Assembly: GCF_030013205.1 (NCBI RefSeq)
Contig: NZ_CP122648.1
DNA: 64,000 nt
Strand: one strand, 5' to 3'
Source of the DNA: Escherichia coli
GTDB taxonomy: Bacteria > Pseudomonadota > Gammaproteobacteria > Enterobacterales > Enterobacteriaceae
Positions 9,568 to 39,441 of this stretch are shown in pieces. A model generated the notes under the pieces. That model searched no databases, was not told the origin of the DNA, and was given only the letters and a program-made list of their open reading frames with translations. Position 1 is the first letter of the stretch. Each line of letters starts with the position of its first letter. The position numbers and the translations under genes are program-made.

Positions 9568-12500
9568 TTATCTGTTTAGCGTTGCGCGAATAATCGGCCC
9601 AATTTTTTCAAATGCCCCTGGAGAGATAATATCCACATGCGCACAATCCTGACGATAGATATCCAGCTCGGCTATCCACGGCGACCAGACGCGTTCGGGA
9701 TTCATACCTTCCTGAAGCGTGCGTTCAGCAACAAACAGCGTCGCTTTACCGTCAAACGGTACGCTATGAGCAGTCGTCAGCAGGCGCACAGCATCAGCGT
9801 AGTTGCCTTCAATGGTGGTAAACAACTCCGTTGAAGTACTTCCCTGCTGTGCCGCCAGGAAGGCCTCGCGCTCGCGGTTAATCTCCGCCAGCACTTCCGG
9901 GTCCAGGCCATTAGCCTCTTTTTCCTGCCAGTTTTGCGTTTCTGGCGGCCAGGTATCCAGCAAGCCAAGAAATGCCACCTGTTCGCCACGGGCACGCAGC
10001 CGCGCCGCAATACCCTGCGCCAGCGTACCGCCCAGCGAATAACCCAGCAGGTAATAAGGGCCGTGCGGTTGATGCTCAAGTAACGTTGCCAGATGCGCTT
10101 CGCAGACTTCATCCAGATTTGCCGCGGTCTGCATGGGGCCATTGGGGCGCGGCGACTGAATGCCGATAATCGACCATTGTGGATCGAGATAACGCGAGAG
10201 CACGCTGAACTGCCAGGCAAAACCGGACGCAGGATGGAAACAAAACAGCGTCGGGCCATTACCTTCACGCAACGGCAGAATGGTTTCGAATCCCATGCGC
10301 CGGGAGCTGTCTTCTTCACCATCAATAATCGTTGCCAGTTTGGCGACAGTTGACGCGACCATCACCTGCCCCGGCGTCACCTGGCGGGTAAACTGCCGAC
10401 TTAACTGCGCAGCCAGTTTCATTGCCAGTAGCGAATGACCGCCAAGCGCGAAGAAATCAGCATCGGCATCCTGCACGTCACAACCCAGCAACGACGAGAA
10501 TGCCGCGGCGATAATCGTTTCACTGCCCGCTTTCGGCGCACGCCCCGGCGCTTGTGCCTTCAGTTCAGGCAACGGTAAGGCTTTGCGATCCAGCTTGCCG
10601 TTGGCGCTAAGCGGCAACTGCGGAAGTTGCAGCAGAACCACGGGCACCATATGCGGTGGCAATGTTTCGCGCAACTGCGCCTGCAATGCAGTGGTATCCA
10701 ACGGCAGGCCTGATTGCGACACCAGATACCCAACCAACTGACGCGCATCGCCTCCCGTTGCGGCAGCCTGGTTAATAACGCAGGCGTGGGTCACGGCCTG
10801 TTCAACGTCCGGCAGCGCCTGCATCACGCGATCGATTTCGCCCAGTTCGATACGCTGCCCGCGAATTTTTAGCTGATCGTCACTGCGCCCGAGGTACTCC
10901 ACCGCGCCGTTATCCAGCCAGCGGGCAACGTCTCCGGTACGGTACATCCGTTCGCCAGGGGCAAAAGGATTGGCAATAAAGCGGCTGGCGGTCAGATCGG
11001 GTCGTCCGAGATAGCCCTGCGCCAGTTGTATGCCAGTGAGATAGAGATCTCCCGCCACACCCGGCGGCACCGGATGCATCATCGCATCAAGAATACGCAG
11101 GCCCGTATTCCACACCGGATAACCAATCGGCACACTGCTGCCGCGCACCTGAGCCAGTTCCTCGCCAAAAGCCGGATACCAGCTGACATCTACCGCCGCT
11201 TCCGTCGGGCCATATAGATTATGCAACGGCACGCCGGTTAACTGTTGCCATTCGCGGCATAAATCAGCCGGTAAGGCCTCACCACTACAGAAAACCTGTT
11301 TTAACGTCGCGCAATTCTGGCGAGCGGTTTGCGGAGTCAGCGATGCAACAAATGCCGCCAGCATCGACGGCACAAAGTGCGTGGTCGTTACGCCATATTC
11401 GGCAAAGAATTGCTGCATAGCGAGCGGGTCGCGGTGCGCTTCCGGTTCAGCCATCACCAGTTTAGCCCCGGCAATAAACGGCCAGAAAAACTCCCACACC
11501 GAGACATCAAAACTGCACGGCGTTTTTTGGGCAACGACATCTTCGCCTGTAAGCGGGTAGTGGTTTTGCATCCAAAGCAGGCGGTTAACGATAGCCGTCT
11601 GCCCGACCATTACCCCTTTCGGCCTGCCGGTGGAGCCAGAGGTAAAGATGATATAAGCCGTGTGGTGCGGTTGTGAAAGTTGCAGCGGCGCACTGCCCTG
11701 CGGTGTAAGCGGGGCGTTATAGCAAAGGCTGGTTAAATCTGGAACATCGGCAAAGCGCGGCAGTTGATCGTCGGTGGTGATTAACAGCGACGGACGCGCA
11801 TCTTCCAGCATCATTTTCAGGCGATCGTCCGGATAGCCGGTATCCAGCGGTAACCAGGCCGCACCTGTTTCAACAATCGCATGTAGCGCCAGAGTCAAAA
11901 ATACCGAGCGCGGTAGCGCCACCGCCACGCTGTCGCCTGGTTTAACGCCGCGCTCACGCAGCAGATTCGCCAGCGCCACCACCTGCTCGCGCATTTCCAG
12001 ATAGCTGAACTGGTAACGCGCATCTGCCAGCGCCGGAGCATCCGGTGTTTTTGCCGCTTGTTCTGCCACCAGCGCGCTCAGCGTGGTTTCTGGAATCTCA
12101 ACCTGAGTGGCGTTGATCTGCGCTAACTGCGCATACTCACCTGGCAGCATAATATCGACATCGCCGCACAACAGCGCAGGATCCGCGGCGAACTGGGCAA
12201 TCAGCATTTTCAGGCGTTCAGCGTGGTGAATTAACGTTGGCTCATCGTAACGCTGTTTATTGGCGAGGATCTCAATACTCAAATCACCGTGTTCATCCGG
12301 GAACAGGGCCAGTTCAAGGTCATTAACCGGACCGGTTGCCAGGGTATGGGTTCGCGTCTGAACACCAGGAATATCCAGTTGGTAATCAAATACCTTGATA
12401 TTGAGTACCGGACCGAACAGCGGTTCCTCTCCTGCCGCTCGCCCGCTGTCACGGACAATTTGTTCGGCATCGTAACGTTGATGACGACGCATTTTTTTCA

Positions 12501-18147: not shown

Positions 18148-18268
18148 TTGACAATACCCGGAGCGATTCGCCCGCAGCCAATGCTGACTGCGGGCGAAAG
18201 TGTAAAGCAGGTGCCTTACTACTCTGACCTGACAACCGGATATGCGGGGATTACTCCCCGCACAACGG

Positions 18269-18421
18269 CTACTTCTTCGGTTCGTAAGCGAGAACAGCCT
18301 TAAACTCAATATTACGTTCCTTCACCGTAAACTCACACAGCGAGTCTCCGACCAGAAGCGTAAATCCCAGCACCGTTAAACACAGCACTATGACTGCCAC
18401 AAGGGCATATTTCGTCAGCAT
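18269..18421 (-). CDS. hokE: Hok-family type I toxin (HokE-like), copy 1
   Basis: 50-aa product [50 protein letters not shown]. Confidence 0.88.
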
Positions 18422-18566
18422 GTTTATATTGCCTCCATGCGAAGAAGGGACTACCATCCGAGTTGTTGAGGTTCGGAGTGGCAGCCCCAGGATTGATAGA
18501 AATATCTCCTGGGGCTTCATCTTTCCAGACCTCAGAGTTAACCTGAAACCGGAAAGCTTCAGGCAC
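18333..18566 (-). CDS. mok-like overlapping reading frame (modulator of killing), copy 1
   Basis: 77-codon [35 protein letters not shown]… starting upstream of hok and ending inside it in a different frame, as expected for mok. Confidence 0.5.
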
Positions 18567-18600
18567 CCGCTGTTATCTTACCCTTCCTTAGCAAAATAAC
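18530..18600 (+). ncRNA. candidate Sok antisense RNA, copy 1 (position approximate)
   Basis: Inferred from hok/sok architecture only: antisense to the mok translation-initiation region; no promoter or terminator mapped. Confidence 0.25.
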
Positions 18601-18771
18601 TGTTTATTTATACAGCAAGTCCTGTTTCGGACTTCTGTTGGCAACACTCGTTATTGCTCGTAAAACGAAATCGCCCGCAGCCATCACTGACCACGGGCGA
18701 AAGTGTAAAGCAGGTGCCTTACCACCCTGACCTGACAACCGGATATGCGGGGATTACTCCCCGCACAACGG

Positions 18772-18924
18772 CTACTTCTTCGGTTCGTAAGCGAGAACAG
18801 CCTTAAACTCAATATTACGTTCCTTCACCGTAAACTCACACAGCGAGTCTCCGACTAGAAGCGTAAATCCCAGTACCGTCAAACACAGCACTATGACTGC
18901 CACAAGGGCATATTTCGTCAGCAT
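18772..18924 (-). CDS. Hok-family type I toxin, copy 2 (identical protein)
   Basis: Same 50-aa Hok sequence; here the upstream mok frame is fused in frame, giving a 98-codon ORF 18772..19068. Confidence 0.8.
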
Positions 18925-19029
18925 GTTTATATTGCCTCCATGCGAAGAAGGGACTACCATCCAAATTGTCTGGTTTGGAGTGGCAGCCCCAGGGTTGATA
19001 GAAATATCTCCTGGGGCTTCATCTTTCCA

Positions 19030-19100
19030 GACCTCAGAGTTAACCTGAAACCGGAAAGCTTCAGGCACCCGCCGTTATCTTACCCTTCTTCAGCAAAATA
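19030..19100 (+). ncRNA. candidate Sok antisense RNA, copy 2 (position approximate)
   Basis: Inferred by analogy with copy 1. Confidence 0.2.
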
Positions 19101-19355
19101 GCTGTTTATTTATACAGTGAGTCCTGTTTCGGACTTCTCACTCCTCATTTGATCAACTGAAGCTGAACCCGTTTTTTTCTGCATGCCTCAATCGTCAAAA
19201 TTCTTCGCCACCAGTCCGCACTGCCATAACTTGTCATATTGCAAAATGTAGCCAATTTGCTTCAGTCACCATCATCAAAAAAAGAAACATTCCAGAACTT
19301 CCGCATCTCGCCCAGTCGCTCCCACTTCTATACTGAATAGAAAACGCCAACATAA

Positions 19356-20483
<1,128 letters not shown>

Positions 20484-24877: not shown

Positions 24878-27800
24878 TTATTTCCGTACCCGATGTCGGT
24901 GTAGCCACATCAGCTTATACGCCGCCGGGATAATAAACAGCGACAGCAAAGGCGCGGTGATCATGCCGCCAATCATCGGCGCGGCAATCCGGCTCATCAC
25001 CTCTGATCCTGCCCCCGTTCCCCACAGAATCGGCAGCAGACCAGCGATAATCACCGCCACCGTCATCGCTTTCGGGCGCACGCGCAGTACCGCGCCGTGA
25101 TACAACGCCTCATCCAGCTTCTGCTCGCTGAATGTTTGCGGATTATTCAACGACGGCTCGGCCTCTATGGCGTGACGTAAATACATCAGCATCACCACGC
25201 CAAATTCGGCGGCAACCCCGGCAAGGGCAATAAAACCGGTGCCCGTCGCCACAGAAAGATGAAAGCCCATCCACCACAGCAACCAGATGCCGCCCACCAG
25301 CGCAAACGGTACGCTGCTGATAATCAGCAACGCTTCGCCCACCCGACGGAACGCCAGATACAACAGCACGAAGATGATCATCAACGTCATCGGCACCATG
25401 AGTTTCAGCTTATGGTTGGCGCGCTCCAGTAGCTCGAACTGCCCGGAGAATGCCACGCTGGTGCCCGGTTTTAACTGCACTTTTTCGGCAATCGCTTTTT
25501 GCAGATCGTGAACCACCGACACCATGTCACGATCGCGGGCATCGATATAAATCCAGCTCGTCGGGCGCGCATTCTCGGTTTTCAGCATCGACGGTCCGGT
25601 AGAGACTTTAACGTCGGCCACGTCTGCTAGGGTGATTTGCTGCTTCATCGGCGTCAGGATCGGCAACTGGCGCAGCGCCTGCGGACTATCGCGCCAGCTT
25701 TGCGGATAACGCAGATTAATTGGATAACGGGCAATCCCTTCCACCGTTTCGCCAACCATCGCCCCGCCCACCGCAGAAGTCACAAACAATTGCACATCCG
25801 CCACCGTCATACCGTAACGCGCGGCTTTTTCACGGTTAATCTCAACGTTGATATAGCGCCCACCTTCCAGACGCTCAGCAAGCGCAGAAGCCACGCCTGG
25901 CACCGTTCGCGCCACTTCTTCAATTTGCTCCGCCATCGCGTCGATATCCGCCAGCACAGTGCCGGAAACTTTAATGCCGATGGGGCTTTTAATGCCGGTT
26001 GAGAGCATATCGATACGGTTACGAATTGGCGGCACCCACAGATTCGCCAGCCCCGGCAGACGCACGGTGTTATCCAGTTCCTCAATGATTTTGTCCATCG
26101 TCATGCCTGGCCGCCACTGATCCTGCGGCTTAAGCTGGATGGTCGTTTCTACCATCTCCAGCGGAGCAGAATCGGTGGCGGTTTCCGCTTTCCCGGTTTT
26201 GCCAAATACCCGCGCCACTTCAGGTACGCTCATAATCAGCTTGTCGGTTTTTTGCAGCATACTCGCCGCCTCTGCTGCGGAAATCCCCGGCAGCGTCGAT
26301 GGCATATACAACAAGTCGCCTTCATTGATCTGCGGTAAAAATTCCCCGCCAACTTTATTGAGCGGCCAGAGAACCGTCAGCACCGAAAGCGCCGCCACCA
26401 GCAGCGTGGTTTTCGGCCAGTGCAGTACTTTCAGCAACAGCGGATGATAAACACGAATCAAAAAGCGATTGAGCGGGTTACTGCTTTCCGGCGGAATTTT
26501 GCCACGGATCCAGTAACCCATCAGGATAGGGATCACTACGATCGCCAGCAGCGCCGCACCCGCCATCGCATACGTTTTGGTGAACGCCAGCGGGCCAAAC
26601 AGACGCCCTTCCTGCCCTTCCAGGGTGAAGATCGGGATAAACGACAACGTGATAATCAGCAGACTGATAAACAGCGCCGGCCCCACTTCAACAGATGCAT
26701 CGGTGATCACCTGCCAGCGCGTTTTATTATCCAGCGTGGCGTCAGGATGCTGGTGCTGCCACTCTTCCAGCCGTTTATGTGCATTCTCGATCATGACGAT
26801 AGCGGCATCGACCATCGCCCCGACGGCAATCGCAATACCGCCCAGCGACATAATATTGGCGTTCAGTCCCTGAAAGTGCATGACAATAAAAGCAATACAC
26901 AACCCCAGCGGCAACGAAATAATCGCCACCAGCGCCGAGCGCACATGCCAGAGAAACAGCGCACAGACTACCGCCACCACAATAAACTCTTCCAGCAACT
27001 TGCCGCTGAGGTTGTCGATGGCGCGGTCAATGAGCTGGCTGCGATCGTATGTTGTAACTATCTCCACGCCTTCCGGCAGACTGCTTTTCAGCGTTTCCAG
27101 TTTGTCTTTCACGGCGGCGATCACTTCTCGGGCGTTTTTGCCGGAGCGCAGGATCACCACCCCGCCCGCCACTTCGCCTTCGCCGTTCAGTTCGGCAATG
27201 CCCCGGCGCATCTCCGGGCCAATCTGGACCTTCGCAACATCGCGCAGATAAACGGGCACGCCATTTTCACTGGCTTTTAAAACGATGTGATTAAAGTCGT
27301 CGAGCGTTTGCAGATAGCCGCTGGCGCGCACCATATATTCCGCTTCCGCCAGTTCGATCGACGAACCGCCCGCTTCCTGGTTTGAAGCATCCAGCGCGCT
27401 TTTTACTTCGGCGAGACTGATGCCATATTGCGCCAGGCGCTGGGGATCGATAACCACCTGATACTCTTTCACCACACCGCCCACCGACGCCACTTCCGCA
27501 ACGTCAGGGATGGTTTTTAGCTCATATTTGAGAAACCAGTCCTGCAATGAGCGTAAATCGGCCAGATCGTGCTTACCGCTGCGATCCACCAGTGCATATT
27601 CATAGATCCAGCCAACACCCGTGGCATCTGGCCCCAGCTCAGCGCTGACTCCCGCAGGCAGCTTACCCTGTACCTGGTTGAGGTACTCCAGCACCCGCGA
27701 GCGCGCCCAGTATGGATCGGTGCCATCTTCGAAAATGACATACACATAAGAGTCGCCAAACTGCGAGAAACCGCGCACAGTCTTCGCGCCAGGCACCGAC

Positions 27801-28021
27801 AACATAGTGGTGGTTAGCGGATAAGTCACCTGATTTTCAACGATTTGCGGTGCCTGACCGGGATAGCTGGTTTTAATAATCACCTGCACATCAGAGAGAT
27901 CCGGCAGTGCATCCACTGGCGTGTTAATGATGGTCCAGGTGCCCCAGATACTCAGAAACAACGCGCCCATCAGCACCAGAAAACGGTTCGCCACCGAGCG
28001 ACGAATAATCCATTCAATCAT
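24878..28021 (-). CDS. cusA: Cu(I)/Ag(I) efflux RND pump CusA
   Basis: 1047-aa [32 protein letters not shown]…. Confidence 0.96.
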
Positions 28022-28032
28022 TGGTTATTCCC

Positions 28033-29256
28033 TCAATGCGCATGGGTAGCACTTTCAGAGCGCATCCGCTCCAGTGCGCCAGAAATATTGGCTTCGGAAT
28101 CAATCAGGAACAGGCCGCTGGAAACCACCTTTTCACCTTCCGCCAGACCAGAGCGTAATGCGGTGACGCCTTGCGATGCCTGGAAAACGGCAACGCGTTT
28201 CGGTACAAAGCGCCCGTCGGCATCAACGGTAATCACCCGCTGTTCGCTGCCGGTATCAATCAGCGCTTGTGACGGAATGAGCAGCATCGGTTCGCTGGCG
28301 GTGTTGAGTTGCAACCAGGCGTTCATTCCCGGCTTTAGCGCCTCGTCGGTGTTGTCGACTTCCAGGCGCAGCTGCAGCGTGCGGGTTGCGGCATCCACGC
28401 CGGGTAGCAGCGTCCATTTGCGGATGGTGAGTGTTTTATCAGGTCGTGCCGGAACGGTGAGCGTAAACTGCGAGGCATCTTTCACCAGCCAGGCGATGGA
28501 CTCCGGGATCGCGGCAGTGATCCACACCGGATCCATACCCTGAATTTTCGCGACCACGTTATCTTTGGCGATATTCATTCCCGCGCGCAGATCAAACGCG
28601 GTGATCACGCCATCAATGGGCGCTTTGAGCGTAAAGCGAGTCTGGATTTTTTGCGTGGCGATCAGGCGGCGAATATCCGCCTCCGGCATTCCCGCCAGTC
28701 TCAGCCGCTCAAGAATGCCTTCAGTCTGGGTCGCCGTACCGCCAGTTTCGCGCAGCAGTAAATACTCACTCTGCGCTTCCACCCAGTCGGGAATGGTCAG
28801 GTCGAGAAGCGGCGCGCCCTTTTGTACTTTATCGCCCACGGTAAGCGGATACACCTTGTCGATAAACCCGGCGGCGCGGGCCTGCACAATGGCATACTGA
28901 TACTCGTTGTAACTGACATTCGCCGGGAAACTTTGGGCAAAAGTCAGCGGCCCGCGCGTGACGGTCGCCGTTTTCACCCCCAGATTCTGCGTCTGAGTCG
29001 GGTCAATGCGCACACCAGACGCAGAACTCTCTTCATCGGCATATTTCGGCACCAGATCCATATCCATAAACGGCGATTTACCTGGTTTATCGAACCGCGT
29101 ATTGGGATACATCGGGTCGTACCAGAATAAGATTTTACGTTCTGCGGTCGACGTTTTTTCTGCGGGCGGTTCCGCCTTTGCAAACCAGGTAAAACCTGCC
29201 GCAGAAATAATACCGCCCGCGATCATGCTGCCGATAATAAGCGCGATTTTTTTCAT
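28033..29256 (-). CDS. cusB: Cu(I)/Ag(I) efflux membrane fusion protein CusB
   Basis: 407-aa ORF MKKIALIIGSMIAGGIISAAGFTWF…. Confidence 0.95.
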   Translation of the reverse strand: MKKIALIIGSMIAGGIISAAGFTWFAKAEPPAEKTSTAERKILFWYDPMYPNTRFDKPGKSPFMDMDLVPKYADEESSASGVRIDPTQTQNLGVKTATVTRGPLTFAQSFPANVSYNEYQYAIVQARAAGFIDKVYPLTVGDKVQKGAPLLDLTIPDWVEAQSEYLLLRETGGTATQTEGILERLRLAGMPEADIRRLIATQKIQTRFTLKAPIDGVITAFDLRAGMNIAKDNVVAKIQGMDPVWITAAIPESIAWLVKDASQFTLTVPARPDKTLTIRKWTLLPGVDAATRTLQLRLEVDNTDEALKPGMNAWLQLNTASEPMLLIPSQALIDTGSEQRVITVDADGRFVPKRVAVFQASQGVTALRSGLAEGEKVVSSGLFLIDSEANISGALERMRSESATHAH

Positions 29257-29271
29257 CTCATTAAACCTGGG

Positions 29272-29604
29272 TTACTGGCTGACTTTAATATCCTGTAATA
29301 AAGAAAGGTTGCCCTGCTGGACAAAATTAAACGCCACTTTGTCGCCGGTTTTTATTTCGCCCATCTTCGTCTGCGGGGTGATGGTAAAGCGCATGGTCAT
29401 CTCCGGCCAGTTCACGGCAGCAATCGGATCGTGATGGATAGTGATTTTTTTGCTTTCCAGATCAATACCTTTTACCACCCCTGTGGCACTAATGACCTGC
29501 GGTTGTGCTTCGCTCATGGTTTCATGATGATGTTCGTTAGCCTGGGCATTAAAGCCAATAACGGTAAACAGACTGAACATTGCGACTTGCAGTGCTTTTT
29601 TCAT
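29272..29604 (-). CDS. cusF: periplasmic copper chaperone CusF
   Basis: 110-aa ORF with signal peptide and NEHHHETM / MTMRF region. Confidence 0.95.
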   Translation of the reverse strand: MKKALQVAMFSLFTVIGFNAQANEHHHETMSEAQPQVISATGVVKGIDLESKKITIHHDPIAAVNWPEMTMRFTITPQTKMGEIKTGDKVAFNFVQQGNLSLLQDIKVSQ

Positions 29605-29627
29605 TTATTCTCTCCTGGAGTTAAAAA

Positions 29628-31010
29628 TTATTGCTGCCAACCGCCACCAAGTGCGGTATATAAAGAAATTTCGTTAACCTGACGGGCATAATTCAGGTCA
29701 AGTAAAGTTTGTCGGGTTGCAAATAAAGAACGTTCGGCATCCAGCACTTCCAGATAACTGACTGCGCCGTGCTGATATAATGCCCGCGCCCGTTGCAAAG
29801 TAATTTGCAGCGATGCCAGATAACGCTGCTGGGCGCTAATTTGATCGTTCAGGCTTTGACGTAATGCCAGCGCATCTGCCACTTCTTTAAAGGCATTCTG
29901 GATTTTCTGTTCATAATTCACCACCGACTGCTGCTGGCGAATTTCGGCGATATCCAGATTGGCCTGGTTGCGTCCGGCATTAAAAATGGGGATCTCAATT
30001 TTGGGAATAAAATTCCACATCCCGCTGCTGGCGTTAAATAAGGACGACAGATCGCTGCTGGCGGTCGATATTCCGCTGGTCAGACTGATAGACGGGAAAA
30101 ATGCCGCGCGTGCAGCGCCAATATTGGCATTAGCCGCCATCAACGCGTGTTCAGCTTCCATAATATCCGGGCGCTGCAATAAGATTTGCGACGACAAGCC
30201 CGCCGGTAATTTAACGCTTTGCAGGCTGTCGCTGTTTACTGTTTGCGCTTGCGGCAGCTTGCCGTAGCTTCCCAGCAACAGTTGCAATGCATTATTCGCC
30301 TGCGCCAGTTCCCCCTGACGTTTAGCGATGTCGCTGCGGGTACTTTCTATCACCCCGCGAGCCTGTTCCAGCGCCAGAACATTGCTGCTACCGGTCAACA
30401 GTTGTTTTTCGACAAACGCATATGACTGCTGATAATTACGCAGCGTTTCTTCGGCTATTTGCAATTGCGCATACGCCAGTTGCTGATTGAAATAGCTTTG
30501 CGCGACATTAGAAACCAGCAGAATATGCACCGCGCGCTGGGCTTCCTCAGTGGCTAAATAATTTTGGCGCTCGGCTTCGCTCATGTTCTTTAAGCGACCG
30601 AAAAAATCGAGATCAAAGCTGGCGTTAAGGCCGGTCGAAAACTCCCGTGTCGTGGCGGTATTCCCTTTAAGATTACCGCTCCAGCTGCCGCTGCCCTCGC
30701 CATTGAGCTGTGGGTAGCGGTCGGCATCGGTCAGACGATATTGCGCCCGTGCCTCCTGCACTTTCAGCGTCGCCATGCGCAAATCCCGGTTATTCACCAG
30801 CGCCTCGCTAATCAGCGTCTTCACCTGATTATCAATAAAAAAGGTGCGCCAGCCCGCGTTCTGGTAGTTATCTGCTGCGTTAACCAGGCCGTTCTGGCTG
30901 AGTGAGAACTGCTTCGGTACGGGCATTGCCGGACGCTGATAATCCGGTGCCAATGAACAACCGGTTAGCGCAAGGGCCACACAAAATGGCAGAAGTTTAC
31001 AAGGAGACAT
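29628..31010 (-). CDS. cusC: Cu(I)/Ag(I) efflux outer membrane factor CusC (lipoprotein)
   Basis: ORF 29628..31016; start chosen at MSPCKLLPFCVALALTGCSLAPDYQRP (lipobox LTGC). Confidence 0.93.
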   Translation of the reverse strand: MSPCKLLPFCVALALTGCSLAPDYQRPAMPVPKQFSLSQNGLVNAADNYQNAGWRTFFIDNQVKTLISEALVNNRDLRMATLKVQEARAQYRLTDADRYPQLNGEGSGSWSGNLKGNTATTREFSTGLNASFDLDFFGRLKNMSEAERQNYLATEEAQRAVHILLVSNVAQSYFNQQLAYAQLQIAEETLRNYQQSYAFVEKQLLTGSSNVLALEQARGVIESTRSDIAKRQGELAQANNALQLLLGSYGKLPQAQTVNSDSLQSVKLPAGLSSQILLQRPDIMEAEHALMAANANIGAARAAFFPSISLTSGISTASSDLSSLFNASSGMWNFIPKIEIPIFNAGRNQANLDIAEIRQQQSVVNYEQKIQNAFKEVADALALRQSLNDQISAQQRYLASLQITLQRARALYQHGAVSYLEVLDAERSLFATRQTLLDLNYARQVNEISLYTALGGGWQQ

Positions 31011-31079
31011 AGGCACATAATTTCTGGTGATTTTATGCCGCCAACTTTACCCGCCAGGCTCTGATTTTCCGGTGACAGG

Positions 31080-31101
31080 AAAATGACAAAATTGTCATTT
31101 T
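31080..31101. promoter_or_regulatory. CusR box (copper box) in the divergent cusC / cusR promoter region
   Basis: Perfect palindrome aaaatgacaaaattgtcatttt between the divergent cus operons. Confidence 0.8.
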
Positions 31102-31166
31102 ACCAATAAGCGATTGCCATCTGATCCCGCTACTCTAGAATTGCCCGGGCAACATGTGGAGGAAAT

Positions 31167-31850
31167 ATGAAACTGTTGATTGTCGAAGATGAAAAGAAAA
31201 CCGGAGAATACTTGACCAAAGGGTTAACCGAAGCCGGTTTTGTGGTCGATTTGGCCGACAACGGGCTGAATGGCTACCATCTGGCGATGACCGGAGATTA
31301 TGATCTGATAATCCTCGATATTATGCTGCCGGACGTGAACGGCTGGGATATCGTGCGCATGTTGCGTTCCGCCAATAAAGGGATGCCGATTCTGTTGCTT
31401 ACCGCGCTTGGTACCATTGAACATCGCGTCAAGGGGCTGGAGTTGGGGGCGGATGACTATCTGGTGAAGCCGTTCGCTTTTGCTGAACTGCTGGCGCGGG
31501 TGCGCACTCTACTGCGGCGCGGGGCGGCGGTAATTATCGAAAGTCAGTTTCAGGTTGCCGATCTGATGGTCGATCTCGTCAGCCGCAAAGTCACCCGCAG
31601 CGGCACGCGCATCACTCTGACCAGTAAAGAATTTACTCTGCTGGAGTTTTTCCTCCGCCATCAAGGCGAAGTGCTGCCCCGCTCGCTTATCGCCTCGCAG
31701 GTGTGGGACATGAATTTCGACAGCGATACCAACGCCATTGATGTGGCAGTGAAGCGGCTGCGCGGCAAAATCGACAACGACTTTGAGCCGAAGCTGATTC
31801 AAACCGTGCGCGGCGTGGGTTACATGCTTGAGGTGCCGGATGGTCAGTAA
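31167..31850 (+). CDS. cusR: copper-responsive response regulator CusR (OmpR family)
   Basis: 227-aa [36 protein letters not shown]…. Confidence 0.96.
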
Positions 31851-33288
31851 GCCATTTCAGCGCCCGTTTTCGCTGGCAACCCGCCTGACCTTTTTTATCA
31901 GCCTGGCCACCATCGCGGCGTTTTTCGCCTTTGCCTGGATCATGATTCACTCGGTAAAAGTGCATTTTGCTGAGCAGGATATTAATGATTTAAAAGAGAT
32001 TAGCGCCACACTCAAGCGCGTTCTTAATCATCCCGAAGAGACACAAGCCCGACGCTTAATGACGCTGGAAGATATCGTCAGTGGTTATTCCAATGTGTTG
32101 ATTTCCCTGGCAGATAGCCAGGGTAAAACGGTGTATCACTCCCCCGGTGCGCCGGATATCCGCGAGTTTACGCGTGACGCCATACCCGATAAAGACACGC
32201 GGGGCGGCGAGGTGTATCTCCTTTCCGGCCCGACGATTATGATGCCGGGCCACGGTCACGGGCATATGGAACACAGCAACTGGCGGATGATTAACTTGCC
32301 GGTTGGCCCGTTGGTGGACGGCAAACCGATTTATACGCTCTACATCGCGCTTTCGATCGATTTTCATCTTCATTACATAAATGATTTGATGAATAAACTT
32401 ATTATGACCGCATCGATCATCAGCATCCTGATCGTCTTTATCGTGCTGTTGGCGGTACATAAAGGTCACGCACCGATCCGCAGCGTCAGCCGTCAAATCC
32501 AGAACATTACCTCGAAAGATCTCGACGTTCGCCTTGACCCGCAGACCGTGCCGATTGAGCTGGAACAGCTGGTACTGTCGTTCAACCATATGATCGAGCG
32601 TATTGAGGATGTCTTTACTCGCCAGTCCAATTTCTCAGCGGATATCGCTCACGAAATTCGTACACCAATTACGAATCTCATAACGCAAACCGAAATCGCC
32701 CTCAGCCAGTCACGCAGCCAGAAGGAGCTGGAAGATGTGCTCTACTCTAATCTCGAAGAGCTGACGCGAATGGCGAAAATGGTCAGCGATATGCTGTTTC
32801 TCGCCCAGGCCGATAACAACCAGCTAATCCCCGAAAAGAAAATGCTCAACCTGGCGGATGAAATCGGCAAAGTGTTCGATTTTTTCGAGGCGCTAGCGGA
32901 AGATCGCGGCGTGGAACTGCGGTTTGTTGGTGACGAGTGTCAGGTTGCGGGCGATCCGCTGATGCTGCGTCGGGCGTTAAGCAACCTGCTTTCGAACGCC
33001 CTGCGTTATACGCCGCCCGGAGAGGCGATTGTAGTGCGCTGCCAGACGGTCGATCACCAGGTGCAAGTTTCCGTCGAAAACCCCGGTACGCCCATTGCGC
33101 CCGAGCACTTACCGCGATTGTTTGACCGTTTCTACCGCGTTGACCCCTCCCGCCAGCGAAAAGGCGAAGGTAGCGGTATTGGGCTGGCGATAGTGAAATC
33201 GATTGTTGTCGCGCATAAAGGCACGGTTGCAGTAACGTCAGATGCTCGGGGGACAAGGTTTGTGATTATGCTGCCGGAGAGAGAGTGA
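31840..33288 (+). CDS. cusS: copper-sensing histidine kinase CusS
   Basis: Start chosen at [19 protein letters not shown] inside ORF 31828..33288, overlapping the cusR stop; HisKA/HATPase motifs. Confidence 0.93.
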
Positions 33289-33644
33289 TTATTAAGTTCA
33301 AATTCAGGGCGTGGTGCATCACCTCCTGGTATTGTTGATCAACAAATTAGAGAAAAACTTATTAAACATATGAAATATCGAAGGCTTTTATTTTTCAAAG
33401 TTTCACGAGATGTTTGTATATGAAACTTAGTTAAATCTGTGTTTCTTCCAATTGTAGATCACAATGCCCTTTCTAAATTTTCATCGTTATAAACAAGCCA
33501 TCTATCATATAAAGCAATGAATAATTTAATCGCGATTAATCATCATTAATTGTTATATTATTCACTCAATCTATTTATCAAGTGAATTTGATAAATTCCT
33601 AATTTAAAATATCCACTATTGAGCCAGTATTTAACAACGTTAAG

Positions 33645-33672
33645 ATGTGCAATGTGCAATGTGCAATGTGCA
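33645..33672. repeat. tandem heptanucleotide repeat (ATGTGCA)x4
   Basis: atgtgcaatgtgcaatgtgcaatgtgca read directly in the AT-rich region upstream of vgrG. Confidence 0.9.
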
Positions 33673-34038
33673 GATCATGTTATCAGGGTGGAGCGGTAGC
33701 ATATATTTCTTATGCAATCATTCATTTTAATAATGTTAATTGGATTATTTATTGCTGTGAATAAAAATATATTATGAATATTGGTTTAACTTTGCGTTTT
33801 TGTTACTCGTTGTGATATGCGTACCTGTCCTGAATAACGCCAAGAAACAAGAGGTTGAGCTTGTGATTATTTTTTTGACTGAACAGACACCCGTTTCTGT
33901 AAAGTAATATTTAAACAAAATTCTCACATAACCATAGCATTTTCTGTTCCTTCCCTAATAACGTCTGAAGTCGTCCCGCTTATCACATTATCCGCAGTTG
34001 TACGGTACGGATCATTATTCATTTTACTGGAGGTTGCT

Positions 34039-35925
34039 ATGTCAACCGGATTACGTTTCACACTGGAAGTGGACGGCCTGCCGCCGGATGCTTTTGCGGT
34101 GGTTTCCTTTCATCTGAACCAGTCACTCTCTTCGCTCTTTTCCCTCGATCTCTCCCTGGTCAGCCAGCAGTTTCTCTCCCTTGAATTTGCGCAGGTGCTG
34201 GACAAAATGGCCTACCTGACGATATGGCAGGGCGATGAAGTACAGCGCCGGGTGAAAGGCGTGGTGACCTGGTTTGAACTCGGGGAGAACGACAAAAACC
34301 AGATGCTGTACAGCATGAAGGTGCACCCGCCGCTGTGGCGTGCCGGTCTGCGCCAGAACTTCCGTATCTTCCAGAACGAGGACATCAAAAGCATCCTCGG
34401 CACGATGTTGCAGGAAAACGGGGTGACCGAATGGAGTCCGCTGTTCAGCGAGCCGCATCCTTCCCGTGAGTTTTGTGTCCAGTACGGTGAGACTGATTAC
34501 GATTTCCTGTGCCGGATGGCGGCGGAGGAAGGCATCTTCTTTTATGAGGAGCATGCTTACAAAAGTACCGACCAGAGCCTGGTGCTGTGCGACACAGTCC
34601 GCCATCTGCCCGAATCTTTTGAAATCCCATGGAACCCGAACACCCGTACCGAGGTGAGCACCCTCTGCATCAGCCAGTTCCGCTACAGCGCACAAATCCG
34701 CCCTTCTTCCGTGGTGACCAAAGACTACACCTTTAAACGCCCCGGCTGGGCCGGACGTTTTGAACAGGAAGGCCAGCACCAGGACTACCAGCGCACGCAG
34801 TATGAAGTGTATGACTACCCCGGACGTTTCAAGGGTGCCCACGGGCAGAACTTTGCCCGCTGGCAGATGGACGGCTGGCGAAACAATGCAGAAACCGCGC
34901 GGGGAATGAGTCGTTCGCCGGAGATATGGCCGGGACGACGAATTGTGCTGACGGGGCATCCGCAGGCGAACCTGAACCGGGAATGGCAGGTGGTGGCAAG
35001 TGAACTGCACGGCGAACAGCCACAGGCGGTGCCAGGACGGCAGGGAGCGGGGACGGCGCTGGAGAACCATTTTGCGGTGATCCCGGCAGACAGAACATGG
35101 CGACCACAGCCGTTGCTGAAACCGCTGGTCGACGGCCCGCAGAGCGCTGTCGTGACAGGACCGGCAGGCGAGGAAATCTTCTGCGACGAACATGGTCGCG
35201 TGCGGGTGAAGTTCAACTGGGACCGTTATAACCCGGCAGACCAAGACAGTTCGTGCTGGATCCGTGTGGCACAGGCGTGGGCAGGCACCGGTTTTGGCCA
35301 CCTGGCGATACCACGTGTGGGTCAGGAAGTCATTGTGGACTTCCTCAACGGCGATCCGGACCAGCCGATCATTATGGGGCGCACCTACCACCAGGAAAAC
35401 CGCCCCCCCGGCAGCCTGCCGGGAACAAAGACGCAGATGACCATCCGCTCCAAAACGTACATGGGCAGCGGATTTAATGAGCTGAAGTTTGATGATGCGA
35501 CAGGGAGAGAACAGGTCTACATCCACGCGCAGAAGAACATGGATACCGAAGTGCTCAACGACCGTACCACCACCGTAAAACACGATCACCGCGAAACCGT
35601 AAAAAATGACCAGACGGTCACGATCCAGGAAGGTAACCGCCTTCTTACGGTGGAAAAAGGCCACAAGATCACCGGAGTACTGAAAGGGTCTTTATCTGAG
35701 GATGTCTTTCAGGACAGAGGCACGATTGCCGGTTCGGTGCATGTTGACGCTGTAAACAATGGTGGCGAAGGCGACGGTATACAGGCTTATACGGCGATTA
35801 AGGAAATTTTGCTGGCCGTGGAGGAAAGCAAAATTGCGCTGACGCCGGATGGCATTCAGCTACAGGTCGGGGAATCGACGGTACCGGATCACAGGTGTCA
35901 GTCACACCGACGGGATCCGGCTTAA
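34039..35925 (+). CDS. vgrG: VgrG (Rhs-element Vgr protein / T6SS spike), 3' end replaced out of frame at a deletion junction near 35880
   Basis: 628-aa ORF with gp27/gp5-like VgrG sequence (…GRVRVKFNWDRYNPADQDSSCWIRVAQAWAG…IALTPDGIQLQVGESTV) ending in an unrelated 15-aa tail PDHRCQSHRRDPA. Confidence 0.8.
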   Translation: MSTGLRFTLEVDGLPPDAFAVVSFHLNQSLSSLFSLDLSLVSQQFLSLEFAQVLDKMAYLTIWQGDEVQRRVKGVVTWFELGENDKNQMLYSMKVHPPLWRAGLRQNFRIFQNEDIKSILGTMLQENGVTEWSPLFSEPHPSREFCVQYGETDYDFLCRMAAEEGIFFYEEHAYKSTDQSLVLCDTVRHLPESFEIPWNPNTRTEVSTLCISQFRYSAQIRPSSVVTKDYTFKRPGWAGRFEQEGQHQDYQRTQYEVYDYPGRFKGAHGQNFARWQMDGWRNNAETARGMSRSPEIWPGRRIVLTGHPQANLNREWQVVASELHGEQPQAVPGRQGAGTALENHFAVIPADRTWRPQPLLKPLVDGPQSAVVTGPAGEEIFCDEHGRVRVKFNWDRYNPADQDSSCWIRVAQAWAGTGFGHLAIPRVGQEVIVDFLNGDPDQPIIMGRTYHQENRPPGSLPGTKTQMTIRSKTYMGSGFNELKFDDATGREQVYIHAQKNMDTEVLNDRTTTVKHDHRETVKNDQTVTIQEGNRLLTVEKGHKITGVLKGSLSEDVFQDRGTIAGSVHVDAVNNGGEGDGIQAYTAIKEILLAVEESKIALTPDGIQLQVGESTVPDHRCQSHRRDPA

Positions 35926-38900
35926 ACTGACGTACCACGCCAGCGGCTACCTGAAAGCCATTCACCGCACGGATAACGGCATACAGACGCTGGCGACCTA
36001 CGAACAGGATGCGCGGGGGCGGCTGACAGAAGCGGATGCGCGGCTGGACTACCACCTGTTTTATGAGTACGACGCTGCGGACCGGATCATCCGCTGGTCC
36101 GATAACGACCAGACGTGGAGCCGTTTCACCTACGATGAACAGGGCCGGTGCGTGAATGTCACCGGGGCGGAGGGCTATTACAACGCCACGCTGGACTATG
36201 GTGACGGCTGCACCACCGTGACGGACGGCAAGGGCATTCACCGTTATTACTATGATCCTGACGGCAATATTCTGCGGGAAGCAGCGCCGGACGGCAGCAC
36301 CACCATGTATGAATGGGATGAATTCCATCACCTGCTGGCCCGTCACTCCCCTGCCGGGCGGGTGGAGAAATTTGAATACAACGCCGCACACGGTCAGTTA
36401 AGCCGTTACACGGCGGCAGACGGCGCGGAGTGGCAGTACCGCTATGATGAGCGCGGCCTGCTCAGCAACATCACCGACCCTGCCGGGCAGACGTGGACAC
36501 AGCAGTGTGATGAACGCGGCCTGCCGGTAAGTCTGGTGTCGCCACAGGGCGAAGAGACCCGGCTGGCATACACCGCTCAGGGGCTGCTGTCGGGAATATT
36601 CCGCCAGGATGAACGGCGTCTGGGCATAGAGTACGACCACCACAACCGGCCGGAAACACTCACCGACGTGATGGGCCGTGAACACCACACCGAATACAGC
36701 GGTCACGACCTGCCGGTGAAGATGCGCGGCCCCGGCGGTCAGTCAGTGCGGTTACAGTGGCAGCAGCACCATAAACTGAGCGGCATTGAACGTGCTGGAA
36801 CCGGCGCGGAAGGATTCCGCTACGACCGCCACGGCAACCTGCTGGCCTGGACGGACGGCAACGGCGTTGTCTGGACAATGGAATACGGCCCGTTTGATTT
36901 GCCGGTGGCGCGAACGGACGGTGAAGGCCACCGCTGGCAGTACCGCTACGATAAAGACACGCTGCAACTGACAGAAGTCATTAACCCGCAGGGTGAGTCA
37001 TATCTTTATGTTCTGGATAACTGCGGCCGGGTGACGGAAGAGCATGACTGGGGCGGCGTGGTCTGGCGTTACCGCTATGACGCCGATGGCCTGTGTACCG
37101 CCAGGGTCAACGGCCTGGAGGAAACCATCCTCTACAGCCGGGACGCCGCAGGCCGCCTGGCAGAAGTCATCACGCCGGAAGGCAAAACGCAGTATGCGTA
37201 TGACAAATCCGGCAGGCTTACGGGTATCTTCAGCCCGGACGGCACATCACAGCGCACCGGCTATGACGAACGCGGGCGGGTGAATGTCACCACTCAGGGC
37301 CGACGGGCCATTGAATACCACCACCCCGATGAACACACCGTCATCCGCTGTATCCTGCCACCGGAAGATGAACGCGACAGACACCCCGGTGAATCCCTGC
37401 TGAAAACCACGTACCGCTACAACGCCGCCGGAGAACTGACGGAGGTTATCCTGCCGGGGGATGAGACGCTGACGTTCAGCCGTGATGAGGCAGGACGTGA
37501 AGTGCTCCGGCACAGTAACCGGGGTTTTGCCTGTGAACAGGGCTGGAATGCAGCCGGCCAGTCTGTCAGCCAGCGCGCCGGATTTTTCCCGGAAGAAGCC
37601 ACATGGGGCGGGCTGGTTCCGTCACTGGCGCGGGAATACCGTTATGACAGCGCGGGCAATGTGTCGGCTGTCACCAGCCGGGAAGATTACGGACGGGAAA
37701 CACGGCGGGAATACCGGCTGGACCGGAACGGCCAGGTCACGGCGGTGACAGCCTCAGGCACCGGGCTGGGCTATGGCGAAGGCGATGAGTCCTATGGCTA
37801 TGACAGCTGCGGCTACCTGAAGGCGCAGTCTGCGGGCTGGCACCGGATAAGTGAAGAGACTGACCAGTATGCCGGAGGCCACCGGCTGAAACAGGCCGGA
37901 AACACGCAGTATGACTATGACGCCGCAGGCCGGATGGTCAGCCGCACCAGACACCGTGACGGCTATCGCCCGGAAACAGAGCGGTTCCGGTGGGACAGCC
38001 GTGACCAGCTGACCGGGTATTGCAGCGCACAGGGTGAGCAGTGGGAATACCGCCACGACGCCAGCGGCAGACGAACAGAGAAACGCTGCGACCGGAAGAA
38101 AATCCGCTTCACGTATCTGTGGGACGGCGACAGTATTGCGGAAATCCGGGAATACCGCGATGATAAACTGTACAGCGTACGGCACCTGGTGTTTAACGGC
38201 TTTGAGCTGATAAGCCAGCAGTTCAGCCGGGTACGGCAGGCGCATCCGTCGGTGGCCCCGCAGTGGGTGACACGGACGAATCATGCGGTGAGCGACCTGA
38301 CGGGCCGTCCGCTGATGCTCTTTAACAGTGAAGGTAAAACCGTCTGGCGACCGGGACAGACCAGCCTGTGGGGGCTGGCACTCAGCCTGCCCGCAGACAC
38401 CGGCTACCCGGACCCGCGCGGGGAACTGGACCCGGAAGCCGACCCCGGCCTGCTGTATGCGGGACAGTGGCAGGATGCAGAATCCGGGCTGTGCTATAAC
38501 CGGTTCCGGTATTACGAGCCGGAAACCGGGATGTACCTGGTGAGTGATCCGCTGGGGTTGCTGGGGGGTGAGCAGACTTACCGGTATGTGCCAAATCCGT
38601 GTGGGTGGGTTGATCCGCTGGGATTGGCTGCAAGTTCTAAAATCAGCAGTTTGATGGACTATATTGGCGATGGTCGTCGTGTTAGTGGGCATACGGGTTT
38701 CCTGGATGGGGTTCGTTTATCACGTAGTCAAATAAACAATATTGCTAAAGAAATGGAGAAGCTAGGAATTAAAGTAATAAGGAAAGCAGATAAATATTTG
38801 CCACCAAATGCTAGGGCAGCTTTTGATTATGGCCTTCGCAATATTTATCTTAGGAAAAATGCCACCTTATATGAGGTGTATCATGAAGTGATTCATGCTA

Positions 38901-39079
38901 AGCAATTTGCGAAAATTGGACGAGAAGCATACGAAGCACTAGGACGTTTATCTAGGGAGGAACACGTTCTAAATGAAATATTAAAAAGTAAAAATTTATT
39001 CAATGAAGCGGAAATAGCTCATGCCATAAAATATGTTGAGGGATTGAGAGAAAAATTCATGATGGGACTAATAAATTGA
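35849..39079 (+). CDS. Rhs protein remnant: YD-repeat core (5'-truncated, no PAAR/N-terminal region) plus a 150-aa variable C-terminal toxin domain
   Basis: 1076-aa ORF rich in YD repeats, core-end motif YVPNPCGWVDPLGL at about 38585-38626, then a low-GC C-terminal tail containing HEVIH; the only ATG is a fortuitous one inside vgrG-derived sequence. Confidence 0.8.
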   Translation: MAFSYRSGNRRYRITGVSHTDGIRLKLTYHASGYLKAIHRTDNGIQTLATYEQDARGRLTEADARLDYHLFYEYDAADRIIRWSDNDQTWSRFTYDEQGRCVNVTGAEGYYNATLDYGDGCTTVTDGKGIHRYYYDPDGNILREAAPDGSTTMYEWDEFHHLLARHSPAGRVEKFEYNAAHGQLSRYTAADGAEWQYRYDERGLLSNITDPAGQTWTQQCDERGLPVSLVSPQGEETRLAYTAQGLLSGIFRQDERRLGIEYDHHNRPETLTDVMGREHHTEYSGHDLPVKMRGPGGQSVRLQWQQHHKLSGIERAGTGAEGFRYDRHGNLLAWTDGNGVVWTMEYGPFDLPVARTDGEGHRWQYRYDKDTLQLTEVINPQGESYLYVLDNCGRVTEEHDWGGVVWRYRYDADGLCTARVNGLEETILYSRDAAGRLAEVITPEGKTQYAYDKSGRLTGIFSPDGTSQRTGYDERGRVNVTTQGRRAIEYHHPDEHTVIRCILPPEDERDRHPGESLLKTTYRYNAAGELTEVILPGDETLTFSRDEAGREVLRHSNRGFACEQGWNAAGQSVSQRAGFFPEEATWGGLVPSLAREYRYDSAGNVSAVTSREDYGRETRREYRLDRNGQVTAVTASGTGLGYGEGDESYGYDSCGYLKAQSAGWHRISEETDQYAGGHRLKQAGNTQYDYDAAGRMVSRTRHRDGYRPETERFRWDSRDQLTGYCSAQGEQWEYRHDASGRRTEKRCDRKKIRFTYLWDGDSIAEIREYRDDKLYSVRHLVFNGFELISQQFSRVRQAHPSVAPQWVTRTNHAVSDLTGRPLMLFNSEGKTVWRPGQTSLWGLALSLPADTGYPDPRGELDPEADPGLLYAGQWQDAESGLCYNRFRYYEPETGMYLVSDPLGLLGGEQTYRYVPNPCGWVDPLGLAASSKISSLMDYIGDGRRVSGHTGFLDGVRLSRSQINNIAKEMEKLGIKVIRKADKYLPPNARAAFDYGLRNIYLRKNATLYEVYHEVIHAKQFAKIGREAYEALGRLSREEHVLNEILKSKNLFNEAEIAHAIKYVEGLREKFMMGLIN

Positions 39080-39327
39080 TAAAACATAACAAAATAACTA
39101 TCGAAATGGCTCTTGACTTGGCTCGGCGTGAGTTAGAGTTAAGGGAAATTCCTTATATTAAAAATAGTCTACATGCCAATTACAGCTATAAATCTATTAG
39201 TATTGGTTCTAAGCAAGGTTGGTTAATTTCAGCGAAATTAAAAGTCCCTGAAACTTTTGAGCCTGATATGATATTTATTGAGATATCTGACCCAGAAGGT
39301 TTTATTAATATTCCTGATGTATTATAA
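39076..39327 (+). CDS. candidate Rhs immunity protein (small acidic protein encoded directly after the rhs CT)
   Basis: 83-codon ORF overlapping the rhs stop (TTGA); low-GC like the CT domain; start ambiguous (TTG at 39076 or ATG at 39106). Confidence 0.55.
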   Translation: MIKHNKITIEMALDLARRELELREIPYIKNSLHANYSYKSISIGSKQGWLISAKLKVPETFEPDMIFIEISDPEGFINIPDVL

Positions 39328-39441
39328 ACTACGTTAGAGGTTTTGTTATAAGGTAATCGGTTTCTTTACAGACCGCTGGCGTACATCGCACAGAGGCTGC
39401 TAACAGGGATATTCCTGCCTGGATGAACGCAAGGCAAGATC

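Follow-up and report, generated by a model that had tools for sequence, protein, structure and literature searches.

A lineage-restricted heptanucleotide microsatellite in the vgrG leader of pig-associated Escherichia coli, probably of slippage origin and likely to have little or no effect in its host strain

Short tandem repeats in front of genes raise a recurrent question: does the number of units act on the gene, or does it only drift in length? The question is posed here by a perfect heptamer array in the leader of a vgrG gene of Escherichia coli, located in a stretch of 64,000 nucleotides (hereafter referred to as the window, to which all coordinates refer unless another locus is named). 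A sequence-only reading of the window had proposed that the array may vary in copy number by slipped-strand mispairing and alter promoter geometry, or that its units may act as reiterated binding sites. Comparison of the locus across complete E. coli genomes has led us to propose a plainer answer. The tract is best explained as a lineage-restricted slippage microsatellite (VNTR), whose effect in the window strain is most likely nil or nearly neutral; we give this reading a probability of about 0.72.

The array at 33645-33672 reads ATGTGCAATGTGCAATGTGCAATGTGCA, that is, four contiguous ATGTGCA units with zero mismatches, flanked by ...CAACGTTAAG on the 5′ side and by GATCATGTTATCAGG... on the 3′ side. 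Tandem Repeats Finder describes it with period 7, 4.0 copies, 100% matches and a score of 56, which is the top score of the window. It is also the sole perfect tandem repeat with a unit of 4–12 nt and at least three copies in the 64 kb, and the two-unit 14-mer, with a chance expectation of 0.09 per window, occurs at the array only. The four perfect copies had been correctly described from the letters, as had their position about 370 bp upstream of vgrG (the end of the array lies 367 bp from the ATG) in an AT-rich region of 750 bp, the G+C content of which is 28–36% vs 50–64% in the neighbouring genes. The gene order around this region is cusCFBA/cusRS, spacer, vgrG, rhs remnant, ISEc1 and nfrBA. 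The features are collected in Table 1.

Table 1. Coordinates of the array and of the features around it in the window
Feature	Position	Strand	Basis or remark
cusS, upstream flanking core gene	31840..33288	+	RefSeq annotation of identical genome ETEC4067
AT-rich cusS-vgrG intergenic region (spacer)	33289..34038	.	750 bp; homology with the paralogous vgrG island starts near 33540
Most conserved leader block	33573..33715	.	Contains the array; alignment to divergent allele and/or rhsE-locus paralog
Heptanucleotide microsatellite (ATGTGCA)x4	33645..33672	.	E. coli alleles seen: 2x, 3x, 4x, 5x
GATC (Dam site)	33673..33676	.	Abuts the 3′ end of the array; unchanged in all alleles and paralog
Candidate sigma-70 core promoter TTATCA-N16-TATATT	33680..33707	+	Predicted; 9/12 consensus match, conservation
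vgrG, 628 aa, 3′ end altered by deletion junction	34039..35925	+	Phage_GPD, Phage_base_V, Gp5_trimer_C (Pfam)
Rhs remnant	35849..39079	+	RHS repeats and C-terminal Tox-MPTase4; no N-terminal/PAAR region; RefSeq pseudogene
Junction of ~2.2-kb deletion, vgrG 3′ end fused to rhs interior	35881..35883	.	Present in exactly 13 complete genomes
Small ORF after toxin domain, 69 aa, WP_001299578.1	39118..39327	+	No Pfam match

The region had been called non-coding, and the comparison of alleles agrees with this: no open reading frame that passes through the array or starts from it retains its frame among alleles. A small-ORF reading (e.g., 33645-33764, 39 aa) was rejected, as its frame shifts between 2x, 4x and the paralog and it has no ribosome-binding site. 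Searched against Rfam with a permissive cut-off, the spacer gave only sub-threshold chance matches and no family. Folding of the array and of the conserved block, as single-strand DNA and as RNA, gave z-scores of +0.2 to −1.5, with nothing structured.

The copy number was surveyed in 5,426 complete E. coli genomes with the spacer as megablast query, and 2,370 of them gave full-length matches. These matches are 736, 743, 750 or 757 bp long, corresponding to 2, 3, 4 or 5 heptamers; the flanks are identical, and the differences in length have no other cause. The 2x allele is carried by about 2,600 of the 5,426 genomes, O157:H7 included. Three units occur in 12 genomes (W13-16, P15-25, ETEC4068, ETEC4069, ETEC4070, ETEC4071, ETEC4075, ETEC6333, ETEC6334, PI7, PSJ-14, and 24AR0357), four units in 4 genomes (ETEC4067, a pig isolate identical to the window, ETEC1701, PK5, and K_EC180), and five units in 2 genomes (ETEC1748 and ETEC4079). 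Queries built with 1 and with 6 units detected no 1x and no ≥6x allele in the 5,426 genomes. In short, expanded alleles (>2x) make up ~0.7% of the leader carriers, and the 2x allele is found in about 99% of them. The variability anticipated by the sequence-only reading is thereby seen directly, in exact 7-bp steps (2, 3, 4, 5) between strains with otherwise identical flanks. Invariant copy number across strains, which had been put forward as the outcome that would speak against such a role, is not what the genomes hold: 2–5 copies were seen, and they differ also among near-isogenic isolates.

The 18 expanded genomes belong to three backgrounds, A, B, and C. Background A unites Belgian pig ETEC, French O139:H1 isolates and the Korean K_EC180, with 0 differences in 8 kb of cus DNA. 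Background B consists of PK5 (4x) and PSJ-14 (3x), which are closely related to each other, and background C of PI7 and 24AR0357, both 3x. Between backgrounds, the cus flanks differ by 0.6–2.5%. B and C each have a private spacer SNP, missing from A and from strain 600468, a 2x relative of background C whose VgrG protein has the same accession as that of PI7. Copy number also changes at much closer range. The 5x genome ETEC1748 is one unit apart from the 4x window, with 0 mismatches over 20.7 kb, and the same is true of the 5x genome ETEC4079 over 40.7 kb; the 3x genome ETEC4069 differs from the window by one unit and 1 SNP over 40.7 kb.

Differences of this size could in principle come from sequencing or assembly, and a 4x tract could be a chance feature. 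Nothing specific points to an artefact, and long reads underlie some of the assemblies. A tract of 21–35 bp with a 7-bp unit is easily resolved on any platform, however, and sister isolates agree with each other: ETEC4070/4071 and ETEC6333/6334 are 3x, and 4x as well as 5x recur in two separate genomes each. A tract of this kind would also be expected by chance at negligible frequency. We consider it practically out of the question that either origin accounts for the alleles.

By comparison of these sequences, at least six unit-step events appear to be needed among the 18 expanded genomes, vs a 2x state kept in about 2,600. Three of these events are inferred changes from 2x to 3x, with further change in A (3/4/5) and in B (3/4). 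A length threshold of this kind is what slipped-strand mispairing would be expected to produce, and the tract would accordingly hold at 2 copies and become unstable from 3 copies upward, which is a comparative statement and not a measured rate. The array also has the marks of the SSR/VNTR class, namely perfect head-to-tail units, whole-unit alleles with identical flanks, and instability that rises with length. It is an undescribed member of that class, which is itself already known. In the searchable literature, the repeat was not found as a named repeat or marker (12 of 14 unit rotations, both strands), and searches on the names of the expanded strains and on vgrG, rhs and cusS together returned nothing useful. 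Like the loci used for VNTR/MLVA typing, the array is short, intergenic and variable between close isolates, with no demonstrated function. Unlike such loci in general, it can separate strains only within those few lineages whose tract has grown beyond 2 copies.

If slippage explains how the array varies, its surroundings indicate from what it arose. The block from 33573 to 33715 has an identity of 0.87–1.00 to the divergent allele and/or the rhsE-locus paralog in every sliding 30-column window (the last ends at 33715), with a maximum of 0.96–1.00 over 33656-33705, and the remaining leader is at 0.6–0.9. The two-unit region of the array shows almost no change across alleles and paralog. The divergent cusS-locus allele (strain 98218) and the leader of the yncH-vgrG-rhsE paralog both have an imperfect ATG-GCAATGTGCA. 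It follows that the perfect 2-unit repeat is itself derived and that arrays of ≥3 units are recent. The multi-copy array is accordingly an expansion of late date, confined to particular lineages, rather than a group of conserved sites. The exact 19-mer of the conserved block was absent from a one-genome-per-species search, and among 79 related vgrG loci from other genera, none had a similar leader or heptamer repeats. As the leader is undetectable outside E. coli, phylogenetic footprinting beyond this species is impossible.

The proposal that the units act as reiterated protein-binding sites, so that each added unit would add an operator site, should be weighed against this history. On the + strand, the array reads TGCAA-TG-TGCAA-TG-TGCAA, and the TGCAA pentamers, lying 2 bp apart, presumably resemble CytR half-sites; the near-invariance of the two-unit region across alleles and paralog would also suit a bound site. 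Yet the older and commonest states hold 1–2 units only, the multi-site array is not conserved, and the expansion is recent and rare. Furthermore, with a period of 7 bp, neighbouring sites would face different sides of the helix, and the Fur box and the CRP consensus are poor matches by manual comparison. This part of the sequence-only reading is left unsupported, chiefly by the imperfect older state, and we regard it as very improbable.

A different route to function would run through a promoter. On the + strand, the spacer contains a single sigma-70-like match, formed by TTATCA (33680-33685) and TATATT (33702-33707), and this core starts 8 bp beyond the 3′ end of the array. All seven aligned sequences have the two hexamers unchanged, and the 16 nt between them differ at one position in each of two divergent leaders. 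Since promoter-like matches in the spacer are no more frequent than in shuffled sequence, the assignment is a prediction that rests mainly on conservation. We take TTATCA-N16-TATATT as the candidate core promoter of the vgrG island. If this is right, the array would lie at about −42 to −69, and each extra unit shifts the conserved upstream DNA (33573-33644) 7 bp from the core, or by about two thirds of a helical turn.

Several other signals were considered in the same stretch. The TTGACT-N17-TATTAC promoter predicted in the K-12 SELEX paper for the paralogous spacer was not adopted, as it is affected by an 11-bp indel and is not conserved in the window allele. The sigma-54 consensus was likewise a poor match by manual comparison, as were the Fur-box and CRP consensus sequences already mentioned. 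It can be observed that the 16 nt between the hexamers (33686-33701, GGGTGGAGCGGTAGCA), which vary only by the two substitutions noted above, are GC-rich in a leader that is otherwise AT-rich; they have the GG-N10-GC spacing of sigma-54 promoters and otherwise match that consensus poorly. In addition, the conserved block starts with a perfect 9-bp palindrome, ATTTATCAA-N6-TTGATAAAT, at 33573-33596. It is kept in the divergent allele and degenerate in the paralog, and has an operator-like look with no known match.

Reports on relatives of the island bear on whether the predicted promoter is active. The locus corresponds to the vgrG1 island of EHEC, or S-loop 44, with the order z0707 vgrG1 - z0706 eagR - rhsF - rhsFI - rhsG (PMC7216683, PMC7618764, PMC13141884). 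The window shares with it the location, from cusS to nfrB, and the leader; in O157 the array is 2x and the flanking leader is 92% identical. For EHEC Sakai, it is reported that transcription from the island's upstream start site is inactive in vitro, that promoters located within rhsF and rhsG, towards their 3′ ends, are active, and that T6SS genes are repressed by H-NS (PMC7618764). When the vgrG1 promoter was swapped, there was still no VgrG1 or RhsF protein (PMC13141884). The paralogous spacer of K-12, between yncH and rhsE, is a SELEX site of the RpoD holoenzyme with an H-NS flag (PMC3946193). In view of these reports and of the low G+C content of the leader, its silencing by a nucleoid protein such as H-NS is plausible.

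The window lineage differs from the EHEC island in what follows the leader. Codon ~615 of vgrG (35883) is joined to an internal position of rhs by a deletion of ~2.2 kb, in which about 555 N-terminal Rhs codons and the gene for the eagR/DcrB-like chaperone have been lost; the O157 spacer, for its part, is ~160 bp shorter. In relatives, the island comprises vgrG, eagR (with a DcrB-related annotation), a full-length Rhs of ~1,600 aa and an immunity gene. Measured against an orphan vgrG-eagR-rhs island of this kind, the window retains the VgrG domains and a toxin with a small ORF behind it, and lacks EagR and full-length Rhs. The junction is present in exactly 13 complete genomes (Belgian pig ETEC and French O139:H1), and 13/13 carry 3–5 units. 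In K_EC180, a larger deletion occupies this site. Expansion and operon decay coincide in backgrounds A and B, where the Rhs of B is annotated as frameshifted or with an internal stop, and do not coincide in C, where Rhs is intact. Broken operons occur among 2x strains too (e.g., 600468). The milder damage in B and the intact Rhs in C indicate that expansion does not depend on a dead operon. This truncation of the "vgrG-rhs" unit in the window lineage had escaped the sequence-only reading.

Tox-MPTase4 occupies residues 941–1069 of the Rhs remnant, and the 69-aa ORF that trails it is a putative immunity gene. The same ORF also trails a zincin-like toxin gene downstream of full-length Rhs in O157, an order that resembles the rhsG-rhsGI gene order of Zammit et al., so that the toxin end and the 69-aa ORF may be the rhsG-rhsGI pair of these authors. 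As a further observation, 37582-39397 of the window is 97% identical to 18241-20056 of the O157:H7 locus, the toxin end and the 69-aa ORF corresponding in both. From this alignment, the Rhs remnant looks like a recombinant of the main Rhs core with a downstream toxin cassette.

With promoter and operon described, the most developed functional alternative can be considered, namely that the array is a contingency-type promoter repeat, in which unit number would tune or switch the vgrG island through distance and helical phase. The upstream partner would then be an activator site, an UP-like element or a nucleoid-protein site. The model for this is hmw1A/hmw2A of Haemophilus influenzae, where 7-bp promoter repeats of 13–38 units modulate expression (Dawid et al. 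1999, as summarized in PMC2651432). The array shares several traits with the non-typeable H. influenzae hmw loci: a 7-bp unit is repeated head to tail in the promoter or leader of a virulence-associated operon, and strains differ by unit-step slippage. Both the array and, 8 bp further on, a conserved −35-like hexamer lie in the most conserved leader block, copy number shifts within a clone, expansion has recurred in three backgrounds, and 16/18 expanded genomes come from swine. Expression-modulating heptanucleotide promoter repeats have a precedent elsewhere (PMC2651432).

Against this, about 99% of leader carriers remain at a stable 2x, and the maximum is 5 units vs 13–38 at hmw. The hmw tract lies ~70–105 bp from its gene, whereas the array lies 367 bp from vgrG, has 2–5 units and precedes a truncated operon. 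Of the hmw-type features, the long tract is lacking, and the intact operon is lacking in the window lineage and present only in background C. The main expanded lineage has lost eagR and the Rhs N-terminus, Rhs in background B is frameshifted or has an internal stop, and the upstream promoter is reported to be silent in vitro (PMC7618764). We therefore regard a contingency role as unlikely. A further comparison is the heptanucleotide tract of neuO in E. coli K1, known as "poly-psi" (mentioned in PMC9659370). It is also a heptanucleotide tract in E. coli subject to slipped-strand mispairing, but it is intragenic and switches the translation frame on and off, whereas the ATGTGCA array is intergenic and cannot act via frame.

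A stronger form of the same idea would make the array a tuning knob for a T6SS vgrG-effector island, in which unit gains alter or relieve silencing and have been selected repeatedly in swine lineages. We consider this improbable. It touches on a side observation concerning hosts: the 16 swine-derived genomes among the 18 expanded ones include isolates from wild boar and come from all three backgrounds, vs ~4/35 in a spread sample of 2x strains. This excess, counted post hoc over three lineages and uncorrected for sampling, could hint at selection. If the tuning-knob idea were true, the array would be the first contingency locus of the intergenic simple-sequence type to be described for a T6SS element of E. 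coli. More generally, if copy number affected the silent vgrG1-island promoter, it would offer a handle on the regulation of an orphan T6SS effector island, a prospect that present evidence does not support.

Near-neutral slippage thus remains the reading that we prefer, and the history it implies can be outlined as follows. The starting state would be the imperfect ATG-GCAATGTGCA of the older leader. One extra T in the common A/B1/E-type allele would have turned it into a perfect 2-unit direct repeat, which would be stable. A third unit would then have been gained on at least three occasions. At ≥3 units, whole-unit change would far outpace point mutation and give rise to 3x, 4x and 5x within one pig-ETEC/O139:H1 clone, of which the window would carry the 4x allele. 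The sole plausible functional route would be the one described above, in which each unit pushes conserved upstream DNA 7 bp away from the sigma-70-like core. We infer a near-nil effect in this strain because relatives are reported to have a silent, H-NS-associated promoter region, because the array is short, and because the operon is without eagR and the Rhs N-terminus. Neutrality has a counterpoint in the position of the array, which falls within the 50 bp of highest conservation in the leader and adjoins the strongest promoter candidate, so that an effect on transcription is possible.

Few simple-sequence loci of E. coli change on epidemiological time scales, and the ATGTGCA array does. Within the pig ETEC/edema-disease O139:H1 clone, it is the only or nearly the only difference over 20–40 kb, and its main practical value is as a potential high-resolution marker inside this clone. 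It would also provide an example of a stable 2-copy direct repeat that turns hypermutable after a third copy.

Some observations concern the leader as a whole. Apart from the array and ≤1 SNP, the spacer (33289-34038) is identical between backgrounds whose cus operon (25289-33288) has diverged by 2.5%. An identical spacer beside diverged cus DNA suggests that the 5′ end of the island has recently spread, or been converted, among lineages. Exchange between islands is indicated by the allele of strain 98218 at the cusS locus: downstream of the array it is 0.9–1.0 identical to the rhsE-locus paralog vs 0.6–0.8 to the window allele (positions 9995-10737 of the extracted locus compared with 9658-10476 of the paralog locus, the window equivalent being 33696-34038), a pattern that indicates probable gene conversion between the two vgrG islands. 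In O157:H7, the part missing from the spacer (locus 9958-10550) is the cusS-proximal one, corresponding to 33312-33472 of the window, and the 2x array region is intact.

The spacer is also a target of insertion. IS1 is found within it in at least 21 complete genomes, at no fewer than two different sites, represented by Z1323PEC0011 (locus 856-1633, window ~33643) and D5 (locus from 718, window ~33510). One IS1 sits 1 bp upstream of a 2x array, with a CAACGTTAA target duplication, and this array-adjacent copy comes between the candidate core promoter and the conserved DNA upstream of it.
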